In this document: piece by piece, positions 10,569 through 20,000 of the stretch | Layout of the letters: each line of letters opens with the position of its first letter | Position numbering within the stretch: position 1 is the stretch's first letter | IMG/VR virus record: IMGVR_UViG_3300030060_004020 | Span: 58,325-78,324 of that record | Direction: 5' to 3' (one strand) | Length of the DNA stretch: 20,000 nucleotides | Origin: an uncultured virus (IMG/VR IMGVR_UViG_3300030060_004020) | Taxonomy: Duplodnaviria > Heunggongvirae > Uroviricota > Caudoviricetes | The notes under the pieces: generated by a model | The model's database searches: none | What the model was told of the DNA's origin: nothing | Seen by the model: only the letters and a program-made list of their open reading frames with translations | Program-made: the position numbers and the translations under genes

Positions 10569-10910
10569 CTATTCGCTCCAAAGAACATCATATCTATTGT
10601 CGGAATATCTTACAATATCTACAGGAGAAACCTTAGAATGAAGTATTTTATCTGGGTCTACATCGTTAATTCCACTACCCTCTATGTCTATGTCTAATTC
10701 TTCTCCTGTATCATTAAAAACAACTTTATTGATACTCACTCCCATATCCCTAAACATAGATTTTCTAACTCCAAATTCCATACTCCAAAAAACTGTCACT
10801 TCTCTATCTTCTAAATATTTTCCATCCCGTTTTTCTGTATCTGTAAATGTAACATTATCCGTTTCAAATTCAAAATACTGTTGCGATTTTTTCAGTTCGT
10901 TTTTCCACAT
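10569..10910 (-). CDS. Beta-rich acidic W-leader protein
   Basis: Start moved to MWKNELKKS, which follows GGAGTTGA. Confidence 0.75.
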   Translation of the reverse strand: MWKNELKKSQQYFEFETDNVTFTDTEKRDGKYLEDREVTVFWSMEFGVRKSMFRDMGVSINKVVFNDTGEELDIDIEGSGINDVDPDKILHSKVSPVDIVRYSDNRYDVLWSE

Positions 10911-10914
10911 TTTA

Positions 10915-12033
10915 TCAACTCCATAAATATTCATGCCATGACTTTTGTATGTCATCCTTTGGAACTTTTAATCCTTTTAGATTTAGATGCTCGCCCCATG
11001 CTAACTTCTTTGACTTACCCTTTCCAACAACCGCTACGATAAGTGATGACATAGCAGTTGCTTTGAAAGGCTTTAATGAAAATGTTTTGATTTGACCCGC
11101 AGGTGGTTCTATACCTGCTATCTTTGAAAGTGCCTCTTTACTTGTTTTTTTGTTATCTAATGTAAACTTCATACCCGAAAAAGTGCTTGCCATTTCTGCC
11201 AACTTAGGAACTCCATTTTTCTTAAACAAGGTTTTTCTTTTTAGTAATCCCAATACATGCTTTCTAACAGGTGGGAAAATTGCTAACTTAGAAGGTAACT
11301 TAACCTGCAAGTGCATATTCTCAATTGCTTTATTTGATTCTGCCAAAGCAATCTTCAATATATCTTTTAATCCAACTTTAATCAAATCACCCCTACCGAA
11401 AAGGGCTTGAGCCAAAGGTGGGTTAGCCGTATTTGGTGTATCACTATACCATGTTGGAGGTGCTTTCTTTCCATATTTTTTCTTATACCACTCATTTGCA
11501 TAGTGGCCGTAAACTTTGTCTTTCTCTTTACCTATGGCATTACCATCAGCATCCGACTTTGCAGGAAAATTAAATACAGTATTTTTAGGATTTAAGGTGC
11601 TTGTTGCTTCTTCAAAACCTTCAATAGCATCTTGGAATTCTTGTAGTTTTTTTACATGGCTTACTAACAGAATCTTATCTTCTTTGAATTCTTCCATAAA
11701 TTCTTCTATGTCATCTAATAGAGTAAATGCTCCTGTGCTTCCCCTATTTGGCGACCTATCCCTTCTATATCCGCTAGTTACATGCTCTTTCAATTGTAAA
11801 TATAGATTAGCAGGGTGAGGCTGTCCACTCTTAGTATCTATTTGTCCAACCTTCTTTCCCTCTCTAGGTTTTCTAATTCTTCTACCTTCACTAAGTAATT
11901 TTTTCCTACCTATGCCTTGACACTTCTTAACCCAAGCCTCATACTCATCAATAAACTTGAATGAACCTCTAACTTCAATATCAGTGCTTCCAACCTTAAT
12001 CACGGACTTTTTCTTCTCGTCTTTTCTTACCAC
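10915..12033 (-). CDS. Basic hypothetical protein (~372 aa)
   Basis: Long ORF; likely GTG start at 12033 after GGAGGTG. Confidence 0.75.
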   Translation of the reverse strand: MVRKDEKKKSVIKVGSTDIEVRGSFKFIDEYEAWVKKCQGIGRKKLLSEGRRIRKPREGKKVGQIDTKSGQPHPANLYLQLKEHVTSGYRRDRSPNRGSTGAFTLLDDIEEFMEEFKEDKILLVSHVKKLQEFQDAIEGFEEATSTLNPKNTVFNFPAKSDADGNAIGKEKDKVYGHYANEWYKKKYGKKAPPTWYSDTPNTANPPLAQALFGRGDLIKVGLKDILKIALAESNKAIENMHLQVKLPSKLAIFPPVRKHVLGLLKRKTLFKKNGVPKLAEMASTFSGMKFTLDNKKTSKEALSKIAGIEPPAGQIKTFSLKPFKATAMSSLIVAVVGKGKSKKLAWGEHLNLKGLKVPKDDIQKSWHEYLWS

Positions 12034-16526: not shown

Positions 16527-16572
16527 AAAAAACAACCCTGTATTTAGGTGCAGGGTTGTTTTTCCTTTTTTT
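16527..16572 (+). terminator. Hairpin plus T-tract, identical to 17007-17052
   Basis: AAAAACAACCCTG/CAGGGTTGTTTTT stem followed by CCTTTTTTT. Confidence 0.85.
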
Positions 16573-16575
16573 CGA

Positions 16576-16654
16576 GGTTTGGTGTCGTTATATATTATAA
16601 CGGTGATTGTGACACCAAACCATATGGTTTACTTTGGAATACCCGTTTCATATA
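16576..16654 (+). promoter_or_regulatory. Cassette element 2: hairpin, palindrome, TATA
   Basis: GGTTTGGTGTC-N24-GACACCAAACC, then ATATGGTTTACTTTGGAATAC, then TTCATATA. Confidence 0.85.
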
Positions 16655-16674
16655 GTTATATAGAGATAGTATGC

Positions 16675-16992
16675 ATGTCAAGCGTAATAGACAAATTTGA
16701 GCAAGAATTAAAGGACAACAATGTAGTTAAGTATGTACAATCAACAAATCAAAATATCAATCCTAAAAAAATAACTGAAATGTTAAATCGTAGGACTACA
16801 CTACATAAAATAATTAATGTTATGAAACAAATGAATTTGAGTGAGTCAATTTGGAATAAATTTAATCATGAAGAAATTGAAGAAATAGCAACAGCATTTC
16901 ACGCTGTTATAGATGAATTCAAGGAAGATAGTGAGGCACTATTCCAAACTGTCCAAGATTGGGAAGATTGGGCAGATAGGCGACCTTATTGA
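16675..16992 (+). CDS. 105-aa helical protein, probably leaderless
   Basis: Start moved to MSSVIDK, 21 nt after the TATA end. The ORF-track extension runs through the promoter element. Confidence 0.75.
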   Translation: MSSVIDKFEQELKDNNVVKYVQSTNQNINPKKITEMLNRRTTLHKIINVMKQMNLSESIWNKFNHEEIEEIATAFHAVIDEFKEDSEALFQTVQDWEDWADRRPY

Positions 16993-17006
16993 GGTCAAAA
17001 CGGTCA

Positions 17007-17052
17007 AAAAAACAACCCTGTATTTAGGTGCAGGGTTGTTTTTCCTTTTTTT
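17007..17052 (+). terminator. Hairpin plus T-tract, identical to 16527-16572
   Basis: 46-bp exact copy, 480 bp downstream. Confidence 0.85.
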
Positions 17053-17057
17053 ATTGA

Positions 17058-17135
17058 GGTTTGAGGTCGTTTTTATTAACTTACAAGATAGTAACCTCAA
17101 ACCATATGGTTCACTTTGAGAACTCAGTTCTTATA
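17058..17135 (+). promoter_or_regulatory. Cassette element 3
   Basis: GGTTTGAGGT-N26-ACCTCAAACC, then ATATGGTTCACTTTGAGAAC, then TTCTTATA. Confidence 0.85.
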
Positions 17136-17197
17136 CCAAACCATAGATAGGAGGTGCTTCAAGGGGTTGAAGTGTAATTATCATTGAGGTGAAAATT

Positions 17198-17674
17198 ATG
17201 AATTTGGAAAAACTAGAAACTAATAGAAATAACATACGAACATGGATGAAAGAAAATGAAAGCCCGCTTAATGATGCTTTAGAGGGTCTACTCACAGCAT
17301 CGGAGTTGGCTAAAACTGATGATGAAGCGGTCAAGTATTGGTCGTCAATTCGTTCACTTTGTGGCAACATGAGTCCTTCTCCTGTTAGAAAAGGTGTGCA
17401 ATCAAAATACTCTACTGAGGTTTTGGCAGTATTAGACGCTATTGGAACAGAAGTTGATGAGGCTTCAGTTCGCTACCATAACGACGGTATTATGTCTAAG
17501 GTATTGTTTTCTCACGGTAAATCCGGCGGAAAACAAATGCTAGCAGAAGTATTTGGAAAGACTATGAGAAACATGACCATTGGAAAACTTAAGAAAAAGT
17601 TGGATGATGGTATATGGGATGGAACTCTAGCCGGTTTAGACTCCTTGACCGAAATAACGGAGGATAATGAGTGA
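17198..17674 (+). CDS. Hypothetical protein, paralog of 18962-19471
   Basis: Shared YWxSIRxxCGNxxxSPxRKG and DGxWDGTL; ATG after GAGGTGA. Confidence 0.85.
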   Translation: MNLEKLETNRNNIRTWMKENESPLNDALEGLLTASELAKTDDEAVKYWSSIRSLCGNMSPSPVRKGVQSKYSTEVLAVLDAIGTEVDEASVRYHNDGIMSKVLFSHGKSGGKQMLAEVFGKTMRNMTIGKLKKKLDDGIWDGTLAGLDSLTEITEDNE

Positions 17675-17681
17675 TTAACAT

Positions 17682-17805
17682 TTCAACCCCTTGTTGCCCC
17701 TACTCCCGATTAGGCCGAATAGTGAAACTACTCTTACAGTGCAGTAAATAAGCACTTCTTAAGAGATTTGAAAAAATAGTTTCACTATTCGGTCTAAGTT
17801 TTTTT
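17682..17805 (+). other. Structured 3' UTR / terminator, copy A
   Basis: 17682-17693 pairs with the 5' leader at 17160-17171. A 21-bp stem (17710-17730 / 17777-17797) encloses an inner CTCTTA/TAAGAG stem; T-tract follows. Confidence 0.8.
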
Positions 17806-17811
17806 ATTTAG

Positions 17812-17893
17812 GGTTTGATGCGGCCTACGGCCTAAATGTTTAAAGAACATTTCATCAAACCATATGGTTTACTTTGAGAACCTGATTCATATA
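17812..17893 (+). promoter_or_regulatory. Cassette element 4
   Basis: GGTTTGATG-N32-CATCAAACC, then ATATGGTTTACTTTGAGAAC, then TTCATATA. Confidence 0.85.
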
Positions 17894-17913
17894 TCTATTG
17901 GTATAGAGATAGC

Positions 17914-18273
17914 ATGCGAAAGATAACAAAAGACGCAGTAAGAGCATTTGAACAGCACAAGAAATTTAAGAGAGGAAATACGACGGTTGAAGTTAGTGAA
18001 AGTAAATTATTTGCCGAACTAAAACTACACGGCAACACAATAGCCAAGAGTGGAGTATTTGAGGGCTTAATGATTTCATCAGCCGGTTGGAATACTGTAA
18101 CAACTAAGGAACGCTTGAACGGCCTTGAAGGTGTAAACATCCATCAAAAGGACTTCACATGGTATCTTAACGGCCGTGAGTGGAATGGTGCTTGGGTTGA
18201 TGTTGGAACTTGGAATTTATTAGATAAATTCCCCAATAAAACCTATAATTATTCGATGCACTACCTTAACTAA
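17914..18273 (+). CDS. Phage hypothetical protein, probably leaderless
   Basis: LHGNxIA, GWxTxTTKERLN and QKDFxWY motifs, recalled from phage hypothetical proteins; ATG 21 nt after TATA. Confidence 0.85.
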   Translation: MRKITKDAVRAFEQHKKFKRGNTTVEVSESKLFAELKLHGNTIAKSGVFEGLMISSAGWNTVTTKERLNGLEGVNIHQKDFTWYLNGREWNGAWVDVGTWNLLDKFPNKTYNYSMHYLN

Positions 18274-18305
18274 TTATGAACTAATATAGTCTGAGGACTA
18301 TAACT

Positions 18306-18345
18306 GCCTTCCTTGCCCTTTCGGGGGCAGGGTTGGCTTTTTTTT
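18306..18345 (+). terminator. GC-rich hairpin with TTCG loop plus T8
   Basis: TGCCCT-TTCG-GGGGCA followed by TTTTTTTT. A further TATAGTC/GACTATA hairpin lies at 18285-18302. Confidence 0.8.
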
Positions 18346-18347
18346 GG

Positions 18348-18428
18348 GGTTGTGAGTAATGTATTTTATAATACTAGGAGAGTATTACTCACAACCATAT
18401 GGTTCACTTTCGGAATACAGATTATATA
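18348..18428 (+). promoter_or_regulatory. Cassette element 5
   Basis: GGTTGTGAGTAAT-N23-ATTACTCACAACC, then ATATGGTTCACTTTCGGAATAC, then ATTATATA. Confidence 0.85.
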
Positions 18429-18448
18429 CCAAACAACAAGGAGGTTAA

Positions 18449-18813
18449 TGTAGGGCGACACCTTCGGGTGGTGCGGTCTTATGAAACATGAGCGAGGCGA
18501 CTGTGCATAGTCGCTACTCTTTGAGTGTAATTAAAACACGATGAACTGTGTTCGCAATAAGGTGAATTAGACCTATCTTTATGTTGAGGTGACGACCTCT
18601 TAACCTGCACGATATTCCAATGGCTATTAGTGGCCATAACACCATTGAGAAACAAAGGCGAAAGTCAAAGTTGAAAATGTAAGACGGCAGGATATAGAAA
18701 GAGATTGTAAGTCATACCAATACTAGTTGGGACTAGTATGACCTCTCATCAAACATGCTAAGTATCACGCATTCCCTTGCTTTGAACGAGTAGCCGGAGT
18801 TTCTCATTTTTTT
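18449..18813 (+). ncRNA. Putative ~360-nt structured non-coding RNA, family unrecognised
   Basis: Has its own promoter element and T-tract, no ORF in the track, and many hairpins (UUCG and GAAA loops). A long-range helix pairs 18646-18653 with 18799-18806. Confidence 0.7.
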
Positions 18814-18818
18814 ATTGA

Positions 18819-18895
18819 GGTTTGGCATCGTTATTATTACTTTACTGGTAGTAATGCCAAACCATATGGTTCACTTTGAGAACTTGAATTATATA
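18819..18895 (+). promoter_or_regulatory. Cassette element 6
   Basis: GGTTTGGCAT-N25-ATGCCAAACC, then ATATGGTTCACTTTGAGAAC, then ATTATATA. Confidence 0.85.
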
Positions 18896-18961
18896 CTATT
18901 AGACAAAGAGAAGTTGCTTCACAGGGTATGAAGTGAACTTACAAACATCGGAGAGATAAAT

Positions 18962-19471
18962 ATGATGGAATATAGTAAATTAATTAGCAAAACAGACGAT
19001 ATATTGACATGGCTTGATGTTAATGATGCAGGTGCTTTAGATAGTGCCATTCGAGGCATCATTGCAGTTGCTAGAGTCGAAGGACAAACAGAAAAACAAT
19101 ACGGTAACTATTGGGGTAGTATTCGCCAAATGTGCGGAAACCTCCCAAACTCACCAATCCGCAAAGGAACACAACCGTCGCTACCTGTAGAAGCACAAGC
19201 AGTTGTGGATTCTGTAATGACTCAAGTGCAAACTGCCTTTGCGGGTATTACTGAAAACACTGACCTACTTCTTGAAGTAGTGCTACCTTTTAGAAATACA
19301 ACTGGTAAAGGATTTGAGTCTATGGATGACCTAGCCGCATATTTGGCGGGTCGAGCCAAAGATGCTTTAGTCAAGGCTCACAAAGATGGTCGTTGGGATG
19401 GTACTCTTAACGATGGACTAACAGGTATGACTCCCCCTCAACCTGCATCAAAGAAGGAGGATAGCGAGTAA
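18962..19471 (+). CDS. Hypothetical protein, paralog of 17198-17674
   Basis: Shared YWxSIRxxCGNxxxSPxRKG and DGxWDGTL. Confidence 0.85.
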   Translation: MMEYSKLISKTDDILTWLDVNDAGALDSAIRGIIAVARVEGQTEKQYGNYWGSIRQMCGNLPNSPIRKGTQPSLPVEAQAVVDSVMTQVQTAFAGITENTDLLLEVVLPFRNTTGKGFESMDDLAAYLAGRAKDALVKAHKDGRWDGTLNDGLTGMTPPQPASKKEDSE

Positions 19472-19482
19472 GGCTAACTGAT

Positions 19483-19622
19483 TACCCTGTGTTGCCCCTC
19501 TACTAAATAAATTCGACAAATTAGCACCCAAAGGACATTACAACTCATACAGTCAAGAGAGTTCACGACTTCTTATGAGATAGTAAAAAATAAAGTGTCC
19601 TTTGGGTGTCTATGCTTTTTTT
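19483..19622 (+). other. Structured 3' UTR / terminator, copy B
   Basis: 19483-19491 pairs with the 5' leader at 18920-18928. Stem 19525-19537 / 19596-19608 encloses an inner CTCATA/TATGAG stem; T-tract follows. Confidence 0.8.
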
Positions 19623-19628
19623 ATGCAG

Positions 19629-19707
19629 GGTTTGAGGCGTAGAATAATATTCAACAAAAGAATGTGCCTCAAACCATATGGTTCACTTTCGGAACACAAT
19701 TGATATA
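19629..19707 (+). promoter_or_regulatory. Cassette element 7
   Basis: GGTTTGAGGC-N27-GCCTCAAACC, then ATATGGTTCACTTTCGGAAC, then TTGATATA. Confidence 0.85.
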
Positions 19708-19727
19708 GGCTATGACATGAAGATACC

Positions 19728-20000
19728 ATGACAGTAATAGATTGGCATGCAGAAGTTAAAGAATATAAAAAACACTATGATGATGATGATGGAATTCATG
19801 AATATGTAGACGGGTTACTCCCTGTATATTTTGGTGACATCAATCAAACATATCATGATGAGATAGGAACACCTCTCACCATTGAGATTGAACATCATCA
19901 TGTCGGCCTTGAGTTTTGGCGTATAATGGTAGGTCATATATTCGAGGCATATCTTGAGAAATTCGTAGAGGCTTGGAATGAATTAGAACAGGAGGAAGAA
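19728..20000 (+). CDS. Ocr-like (T7 gp0.3-like) acidic DNA-mimic protein, truncated by the window edge
   Basis: Manual translation: MTVIDWHAEVKEYKKHYDDDDGIHEYVDGLLPVYFGDINQTYHDEIGTPLTIEIEHHHVGLEFWRIMVGHIFEAYLEKFVEAWNELEQEEE. ATG lies 21 nt after TATA. Confidence 0.65.
   Translation, partial: MTVIDWHAEVKEYKKHYDDDDGIHEYVDGLLPVYFGDINQTYHDEIGTPLTIEIEHHHVGLEFWRIMVGHIFEAYLEKFVEAWNELEQEEE

Follow-up and report, generated by a model that had tools for sequence, protein, structure and literature searches.

A conserved helix pairs the leader with the stop region in mRNAs of a viral gene family

A closing helix at two paralogous genes and their relatives

The window analysed here is a stretch of 20,000 nucleotides (nt) from an uncultured tailed virus, positions 58,325 to 78,324 of the 78-kb IMG/VR record IMGVR_UViG_3300030060_004020. 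The plus strand of the window is, from about 15.8 kb onwards, an array of single-gene units, each of which is preceded by a variable hairpin and a box, CCATATGGTT(C/T)ACTTT, with seven copies in the window compared to 0.07 expected by chance. Two of the units carry the open reading frames (ORFs) A (17198-17674, 158 aa) and B (18962-19471, 169 aa), which are paralogues with 49 of 158 identical residues (31%, E 1e-21). The subject of this study is a helix, here called P1, in which the leader of each of these two mRNAs pairs with the region around its own stop codon. An initial annotation of the DNA had described leader hairpins, leader/trailer complementarities and an inner motif in the 3' hairpin at both genes, and these motifs, pairs and coordinates were all confirmed.

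The sequence GCTTCA..TGAAGTG is located at 17156-17174 and 18916-18935. In A, CAAGGGGTTGAA (17160-17171) is complementary to TTCAACCCCTTG (17682-17693), and in B, CACAGGGTA (18920-18928) is complementary to TACCCTGTG (19483-19491), followed in both genes by TTGCCCCT (17694-17701 and 19492-19499, respectively). The minimum free energy (MFE) folds of both presumed transcripts contain a helix between the leader and the stop region that closes the ORF. The helices are longer than initially estimated, with 27 nt paired in the MFE fold of A, and 9 base pairs (bp) in B plus inner pairs that reach the stop codon. The z-scores of the whole-transcript folds were -6.49 for A and -4.25 for B (20 shuffles each). 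Among the 93 non-overlapping ORFs of at least 50 aa in the 78-kb record, the leader/trailer duplex energies had a mean of -16.8 kcal/mol (sd 6.1); ORF A ranked first with -44.0 kcal/mol and ORF B fourth with -31.0 kcal/mol. The second rank was held by ORF 16624-16992, which is located between two copies of one palindromic terminator.

A word-indexed search identified 35 homologues, and a profile search identified 175 clusters (50% identity) with E-values of at most 0.001, 85 of which had E-values of at most 1e-10. Thirteen viral and 80 metagenome loci were fetched, and six were excluded by hand, either as being from the same record as, or identical to, a kept locus (L011, L019, L065, L080) or as having the gene cut at its 5' side (L024, L095). 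The 87 loci and the two copies in the window were entered, and two with no stop codon in the locus and six with too short flanks were dropped, leaving 81 sequences, of which 65 were distinct in leader plus trailer. The set stops short of the most distant part of the family (P0056 and P0109). The cognate leader/trailer duplexes had a mean energy of -44.0 kcal/mol, compared to -29.1 for non-cognate and -26.3 for between-group combinations of the 10 leader groups. The cognate trailer was the best partner in nine of the ten groups, the exception being ORF B (-31.0 versus -32.1), and the z-scores against shuffled trailers ranged from -3.0 to -6.0.

The 65 whole transcripts were aligned with MAFFT (alignment A3), and a structure of 24 pairs was obtained from the votes of single-sequence duplexes. 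Standard pairs occupied 81.8% of 1477 cells, compared to 34.0-46.3% when the 3' partner was slid by 1-3 columns. Changes on both sides were observed in 19 of the 24 pairs, and the 165 cells with double changes exceeded the 66.4±6.4 obtained by shuffling, a number that was attained in none of 500 shuffles. P1 is a real helix that is under selection, and the natural covariation in the sequences indicates that its pairing is kept by compensatory changes. The proposal that a covarying 5'-3' architecture is retained in spite of diverged proteins is thus upheld in the gathered homologues and their aligned flanks.

G·U and U·G pairs are common in the helix (26 at columns 30-664, 28 at 44-652 and 19 at 40-655), and since these are A·C mismatches on the opposite strand, the helix is assigned to the sense strand, in RNA. 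These pairs bear on the idea, raised in the initial annotation, that the arms are the ends of a mobile unit. At the DNA level, the arms would then be inverted repeats at the termini of a mobile gene cassette or a site for its recombination. Inverted repeats do surround a single gene in a region of cassette reshuffling: the order in the window is A, a gp96-like gene, a putative RNA cassette and B, and in the close relative IMGVR_UViG_3300025853_008930 it is RNA cassette, A, gp96-like gene and B. However, the joints between relatives are placed at the promoter boxes (17038, 18395-18410, 18860-18883) rather than at the arms, the positions of the arms follow the start of transcription and the stop codon, many G·U pairs are specific to one strand, and no transposase or integrase is adjacent. 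A DNA-level element is extremely unlikely.

The geometry of P1 is similar throughout the 65 distinct relatives. The helix has a median length of 25 bp (range 11-35), and its outermost pair uses the conserved G of GCUUC in 64 sequences, which pairs with the C of GUUGC about 20-30 nt past the stop codon. Relative to the end of the stop codon, the start of the 3' arm falls at -12 to +6 nt in 63 sequences and at +12 in the other two. The 5' arm terminates 19-25 nt upstream of the AUG in 51 sequences. The inner end of the helix is reached about 20 nt short of the AUG on the 5' side and at the stop codon on the 3' side, and the whole ORF is a loop closed by P1. In A, the 3' arm extends from its innermost pair, 9 nt ahead of the stop codon's end, to its outermost pair, 23 nt past it. 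The outer end consists in 55 of the 65 sequences of two pairs (G-C and C-G) followed by a 2x2 pyrimidine loop, which is UU/UU in 45 and UU/UC in 10. Only in the L009/L010 subgroup does the pairing extend to the GGA..GG of the Shine-Dalgarno (SD) region and the UCC..UCC of the last codons.

Promoters, predicted transcript ends and competing structures

The upstream DNA of 57 distinct relatives, aligned on the conserved G, shows TTYATATA at positions -28..-21, C at -20 and WTAGTATT at -8..-1, with T-1/G0 in 56 of the 57. In three neighbouring cassettes of the window, counting 21 nt from the TATA box leads to the A of the ORF's start codon ATG (16675, 17914 and 19728), which predicts that these genes are leaderless, a common state in archaea. 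The same count from the end of the TATA box in cassettes A and B leads to G17156 and G18916, the G of GCUUC, and on this shared spacing transcription is predicted to begin at the first base of the helix. Genes of the A/B type have an SD-bearing leader of 42-64 nt (42-49 nt in A and B), unlike their leaderless neighbours in the same array. Judged by their sequence, the cassette promoters are of the archaeal type, with TATA, proximal, B recognition element (BRE) and initiator positions laid out as in the reference geometry given in PMC2699501.

Minimal upstream frames are located inside the 5' arm, GUG-UAA in A (17172-17177) and AUG-AAG-UGA in B (18928-18936). The close relatives L006 and L020-L023 contain AUG-AAG-UAA, and other subgroups have UUG-led frames of 3-8 codons; the upstream frame is not uniformly kept.

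When the leaders were folded alone, 38 of 45 distinct leaders paired at least four of their first six nt locally. The sequence of this local stem varies by group, for example CUUCA/UGAAG, CUCAA/UUGAG and UUCC/GGAA. The local 5' hairpin and P1 are mutually exclusive because both use the 5' arm, and P1 is predicted to be far more stable (-27 to -55 kcal/mol versus -3.5 to -18.6 kcal/mol). A two-state RNA is plausible in light of these folding models, and the mutually exclusive hairpin agrees with the conformational switch that had been suggested at the outset.

The hok-like form of this switch, in which the end-paired full-length RNA would be silent and translated only when nascent or processed at its 3' end, agrees less well with the data. 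It would account for the competition between the two structures, for the far greater stability of P1 and for the L009/L010 subgroup, where pairing reaches the SD region and the last codons. However, the predicted unpaired probability from SD to AUG was 0.43-0.74 for the full-length RNA and 0.35-0.90 when the RNA was truncated 200 nt inside the ORF, and across 15 representatives the difference had no consistent sign. The accessibility of the SD and AUG is thus alike with and without the 3' arm, so that a block of the ribosome site is not predicted; occlusion of the SD by P1 was rejected as a candidate on the same data. Moreover, the 3' arm is followed by further RNA, the protein does not resemble a small membrane toxin, and no antisense partner was seen, although no systematic search for one was made. 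We consider a hok-like switch quite improbable.

The prediction that the SD remains accessible in the closed form is also relevant to a closed-loop mode of translation. Here, P1 would place the stop codon beside the SD and the AUG, such that terminating ribosomes re-initiate and the yield per mRNA increases. Both of the distances concerned are tight (63 and 51 of the 65 sequences within the ranges given above), and termination-reinitiation is known in archaea (PMC6728339). On the other hand, the argument is one of pure geometry, a ribosome at the stop codon would need to melt much of the very helix that is meant to join the two sites, and one subfamily lacks P1. Closed-loop translation is an unlikely explanation for the helix.

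The RNA that follows the 3' arm comprises 25-140 nt and forms either a compact terminator hairpin 0-3 nt later (for example in the L009 group) or a structured tail of 100-140 nt. In the window, the inner motif CTC(T/A)TA-C-AGT...ACT-TCT-TA(A/T)GAG sits in a long hairpin of unrelated outer sequence, together with an A-rich bulge and a T run. The tails of A, B, their close relatives and the paralogue L110 share CUCWUA-Y-AGUNC...GNACU-UCU-UAWGAG and the A-rich bulge within unrelated outer stems. The initial annotation had expected both the flank complementarity and this motif in other homologues; the former is retained in the 65 distinct relatives, while only 11 of 114 loci have the exact motif, namely those of close relatives and of one additional paralogue. 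A variant of it is present in the L007 group. An alternative pairing between the 3' ACTTC and the 5' GAAGT was rejected, as it comprises 5 bp and its partners are missing from the large L007 group.

Contigs assembled from RNA libraries match parts of both genes. Those from a marine sample (X15, the same as X16) contain identical pieces of ORF A (17429-17663) and ORF B (18997-19165), a contig from an oligo-dT library (X18) covers 17709-17859 with one difference, and a run labelled as freshwater (X17) contains a relative of both ORFs at about 94%. As contigs, these matches show presence in RNA libraries rather than transcription, ends or strand, and the parts that they do not cover are uninformative. 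The sole joint listed in them runs from 19252 to 19380 (X15/X16), where an internal part of ORF B is skipped and 121 other letters are found instead.

The contigs were also considered in relation to the possibility that P1 is a processing stem. A double-strand-specific or splicing endonuclease would then cut the helix, releasing or circularising the ORF and freeing the structured 3' RNA, as at the flanks of rRNA. This would be consistent with the long, near-perfect helices (median 25 bp), with the conserved bases GCUUC/GUUGC at the outer end and with a 3' hairpin whose conserved inner motif could be a separate RNA. However, the bulge-helix-bulge geometry (two 3-nt bulges on opposite strands, 4 bp apart) is present in none of the 65 helices, and no gene for an RNase III-like enzyme, which to our knowledge is rare in archaea, was found among the 35 large ORFs of the record that were scanned. 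The RNA-library contigs contain no joint that links the arms or runs backwards, although contigs could miss such joints. Processing is a doubtful explanation, to about the same degree as the hok-like switch.

The protein family, the virus and the neighbouring cassettes

The proteins encoded by ORFs A and B had no significant match in Pfam, PHROG, NCBIfam or PADLOC. The structure prediction that had been recommended for them gave a confident, all-helical AlphaFold model (predicted local distance difference test, pLDDT, 91.2; predicted template modelling score, pTM, 0.75), while the accompanying Foldseek search against the PDB matched no solved fold (best E 0.5). VIA-align identified only generic three-helix bundles for residues 1-66 (Z at most 8.2), two unnamed viral models matched in BFVD, and no usable match was obtained in the ESM Atlas. 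The family is acidic, with a median isoelectric point (pI) of 4.86 and a net charge of -9 in 69 members, which argues against the protein binding its own RNA. Four related virus records carry two to four clustered copies each, and P1 is also present in the paralogues L104, L105 and L110. The family of small, acidic, helical proteins to which A and B belong is present in multiple copies, and each copy is self-contained, with an archaeal TATA promoter and a T-run terminator.

That the protein has a cognate RNA was another of the early suggestions, and it can be widened to a platform in which the encoded protein, another viral protein or a host protein would bind the base of the helix (GCUUC/GUUGC and the pyrimidine 2x2 loop) or the inner 3' motif for feedback control. 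Beyond pairing, the sequence itself is conserved both at the base of the helix and, within outer stems that are unrelated, in the 3' motif, and on the plus strand of the record GTTGCCCC occurs only at the two genes and at one site in a coding region of the opposite strand. The latter copy (G000 43287) was attributed to chance. Against a platform stand the acidity of the family, the lack of a match to an RNA-binding fold in the Foldseek, BFVD and VIA-align searches, the absence of the 3' motif from most relatives, and the fact that conservation of the 5' bases is equally explained by the promoter and initiator. We find a protein platform very unlikely, and the narrower suggestion of a protein with its cognate RNA found no support.

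DNA and protein searches of cultured phages with the region and ORF B gave no match, and the terminase had only matches of 22-28% in cultured phages, to Bacteroides and other phages. A scan of the 35 large ORFs of the record showed that the family B DNA polymerase (PolB) is split into two ORFs located about 1.8 kb apart (G000:C1:7411-9075 and 10864-11769, outside the window). The record also encodes a replication factor C (RFC)-like clamp loader, an ERCC4 nuclease with a helix-hairpin-helix (HhH) motif, a PD-(D/E)XK nuclease and, between the prohead protease and portal genes, an ATP-dependent ligase. The closest PolB proteins in cultured viruses are those of haloarchaeal tailed viruses (about 26% identity, E 2e-25). 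Magroviruses are viruses of Marine Group II archaea. According to the part of Philosof et al. (PMC5434244) drawn on here, a split DNA polymerase is unique to group B magroviruses, and in groups A and B the structural module contains a ligase. The split PolB, the archaeal-type clamp loader and the position of the ligase within the structural genes give the virus the appearance of a group B magrovirus, and the TATA/BRE geometry, the leaderless genes and the affinity of PolB to haloarchaeal viruses indirectly suggest that the host is probably an archaeon, which for such a virus would be one of the Poseidoniales. The best explanation is that the window represents the accessory-gene end of a magrovirus-like tailed virus of marine archaea, the accessory cassettes of which would mix leaderless messages with clamped, SD-led ones.

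Table 1. Positions of the promoter, transcript and hairpin features of cassettes A and B and of the leaderless neighbours in the window.
Feature	Position	Strand	Basis or remark
Promoter cassette A	palindromic box CCATATGGTTCACTTT 17102-17117; TATA box TTCTTATA 17128-17135	+	box repeats, TATA profile, spacing as in leaderless neighbours
5' arm of P1, mRNA A	17156..17186	+	MFE fold; begins at predicted first transcribed base G17156
Alternative local 5' hairpin, mRNA A	17156-17173	+	GCUUCAA/UUGAAGU, leader folded alone
SD and ORF A	17186..17674 (SD GAGGTG 17186-17191; ATG 17198; stop 17672-17674)	+	158 aa, acidic helical, family unassigned
3' arm of P1, mRNA A	17666..17697	+	spans last codons and stop codon; ends with GUUGC 17693-17697
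3' hairpin A	17709..17806	+	inner motif CUCUUA-C-AGUGC...GCACU-UCU-UAAGAG 17731-17765; A-rich bulge; T run 17799-17805
Promoter cassette B	box 18862-18877; TATA box ATTATATA 18888-18895	+	box repeats, TATA profile, spacing
5' arm of P1, mRNA B	18916..18942	+	begins at predicted first base G18916
Alternative local 5' hairpin, mRNA B	18916-18934	+	GCUUCA/UGAAGU
SD and ORF B	18950..19471 (SD GGAGAG 18950-18955; ORF 18962-19471)	+	169 aa, paralogue of A
3' arm of P1, mRNA B	19469..19495	+	stop codon to GUUGC 19491-19495
3' hairpin B	19523..19622	+	inner motif CUCAUA-C-AGUC...GACU-UCU-UAUGAG 19545-19579; A-rich bulge; T run 19616-19622
TATA-to-ATG stretches of leaderless genes	16647-16675, 17886-17914, 19700-19728	+	ATG exactly 21 nt past TATA

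Other features of the array were observed alongside those in Table 1. The cassette at 18395-18883 has both the box and a TATA box, with a start predicted near 18449, but lacks an ORF of at least 60 aa, and is likely to represent a non-coding RNA of roughly 360 nt. It had no match in Rfam, and the z-score of its fold was just -1.77. The 3' part of the cassette (18613-18883) is conserved in one relative, and RNA-library contigs contain a 51-nt piece of it (18613-18663). In other viruses (L008 and L070), its CCAATGG..ATTAGTGGCCATAACACC stretch comes immediately after the 3' arm of genes of the family. The gene located between A and B (17914-18273) has matches to Kyano_Gp96 of Pfam (E 1.1e-17) and to phrog_554; the family is known from T4-like cyanophages and resides here in a probable archaeal virus.

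Near-identical palindromic terminators at 16527-16560 and 17005-17044 bracket the ORF that ends at 16992 (ATG 16675). This pair explains both the high leader/trailer score of ORF 16624-16992 and the Rfam results for the region, which consisted only of sub-threshold Thr_leader/rimP matches on the repeated terminators at 16527-17103; no Rfam family fits. At the other end of the window, beside the terminase gene, a 747-aa ORF on the minus strand (281-2524) combines an HNH-endonuclease-like segment (residues 286-404) with a C-terminal NUDIX domain (residues 613-733).

A possible end clamp and its relation to known systems

The reading that we favour, with slightly better than even confidence, is that P1 serves as an end clamp, by which the message would be protected and its fate linked to the ribosomes that terminate on it. 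During transcription, the 5' end would be held in the local hairpin and the SD would be free. Once the 3' arm has been made, the far more stable P1 would form and bury the 5' triphosphate end beside the 3' hairpin, which would shield the message from decay that depends on the 5' end. A ribosome that arrives at the stop codon would have to melt the inner part of P1, and the state of the clamp, the life of the message and renewed initiation would thereby be tied to translation. End protection is favoured as the core function mainly because the predicted 5' end is located within a helix in every copy examined except L107, which looks leaderless. The leaders of L106, L108 and L109 (25-34 nt) open with a GC-rich local hairpin, the sequence of which differs by copy (GCCC/GGGC, CCCCG/CGGGG). 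The presence of such a hairpin at the 5' end of a subfamily without P1 points to sealing of the 5' end as a common need.

Several observations weigh against the end clamp. The divergent subfamily of L106, L108 and L109 lacks P1 itself, L107 looks leaderless, and no effect on initiation is predicted, since the accessibility of the SD and AUG is about the same with and without the 3' arm. The structure used for the covariation analysis was derived from the same, mutually related sequences on which it was tested, and the MAFFT alignment is poor between subgroups. The two terminal pairs are weak, with the 2x2 pyrimidine loop behind them in 55 of the 65 sequences, and their conservation may reflect the promoter and initiator instead of pairing. 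The predicted starts at G17156 and G18916 come from promoter geometry only, and the TATA box is about 2 nt closer than in Methanocaldococcus, as reported in PMC2699501. Finally, the host is uncultured, and the clamp would be a need of this one family alone.

A more far-reaching version of the end clamp, which we hold to be unlikely, is that archaeal viruses make true panhandle mRNAs. The 5' triphosphate end would be paired from the first nucleotide to the stop region in a closed loop free of proteins, and each terminating ribosome would open the clamp transiently and return to the start site. If so, the panhandle mRNA would be a prokaryotic counterpart of the closed-loop mRNA of eukaryotes, and it could hide viral 5' ends from 5'-to-3' decay or end-sensing defence in the host. 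A hok-like block of the ribosome site, a cut site of the tRNA-intron type, mobile-element ends and a self-binding protein are not supported.

Pairing between the two untranslated regions (UTRs) of one prokaryotic mRNA has so far been known from a few single genes (hbs, icaR and hok), where it was proven by mutagenesis. Here, an entire viral gene family has an end helix that is supported by natural covariation in 65 distinct sequences. The geometry of the helix is anchored at the stop codon and at the predicted start of transcription, and the setting is a probable archaeal one, in which mRNA decay and translation control are poorly known. In literature outside subscription journals, no description of such a helix was found for mRNAs of phages or archaeal viruses. 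The element is short, defined and portable, consisting of the leader and about 30 nt past the stop codon, and could be used to test the effects of end pairing on stability or ribosome recycling in archaea.

In the hok mRNA, the tac and fbi elements form a fold-back, with fbi at the 3' end, where it is removed by trimming; the mRNA also has a metastable 5' hairpin, encodes a small membrane toxin and has an antisense RNA partner. Similar to hok, the extreme 5' end of the messages described here pairs with a distant 3' segment, and a competing local 5' hairpin is present (38 of 45 leaders). The 3' arm is here followed by 25-140 nt, however, and the product is an acidic, helical protein of 158-169 aa.

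In icaR of Staphylococcus aureus, the 3' UTR (UCCCCUG) pairs with the SD, which blocks translation and creates a site for RNase III (PMC3868564). The P1 arms resemble what is described in that work in that a C-rich 3'-UTR motif (here with CCCCU/CCCUG-type cores) and a G-rich 5' segment form a long duplex. The target in icaR is the SD itself, whereas the G-rich partner is here located about 20-40 nt upstream of an SD that is predicted to be accessible. A block of the icaR type was not found: the 5' arm stops short of the AUG by 19-25 nt in 51 of the 65 relatives, and only in L009/L010 does it reach the SD region.

The array itself is similar to the PeSL promoter/terminator cassettes of T4-type phages, which are units reshuffled at repeats made of a hairpin plus a promoter (PMC2839356, PMC4122927). 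Here too, single-gene units are bounded by a hairpin and a conserved promoter and rearranged at the repeats, with seven boxes in the window and joints at the boxes. They differ in having an archaeal TATA promoter with the CCATATGG palindrome and in the 5'-3' pairing of the mRNA, which is not described for PeSL in the parts of these papers drawn on here. Translational control in haloarchaea was reported to need both UTRs (Brenneis and Soppa 2009, PMC2636863), and is similar in that the 5' and 3' UTRs of archaeal mRNAs act together. A base-paired helix is not defined in the portion of that study cited here, whereas the pairing predicted for P1 is explicit.

The system that the present element is judged to resemble most in its working is the hbs mRNA of Bacillus subtilis. 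According to the portion of Braun, Durand and Condon (2017, PMC5737220) cited here, a 14-bp interaction of the 5' UTR with the 3' UTR restrains cleavage of the leader and stabilises the primary transcript, as confirmed by compensatory mutation. As in hbs, part of the leader in A, B and their relatives pairs with a stretch of its own mRNA that lies between stop codon and terminator, and compensatory changes support the pairing, by mutagenesis in hbs and by natural covariation here. The hbs pairing modulates the access of ribonucleases and the stability of the transcript, and an effect of this kind is proposed for P1 by analogy. The two differ in that the 14 bp of hbs are placed inside a long structured leader of one gene in a bacterium, while P1 comprises 11-35 bp, begins at the predicted first base, abuts the stop codon and is found in a whole viral gene family with a probable archaeal host.

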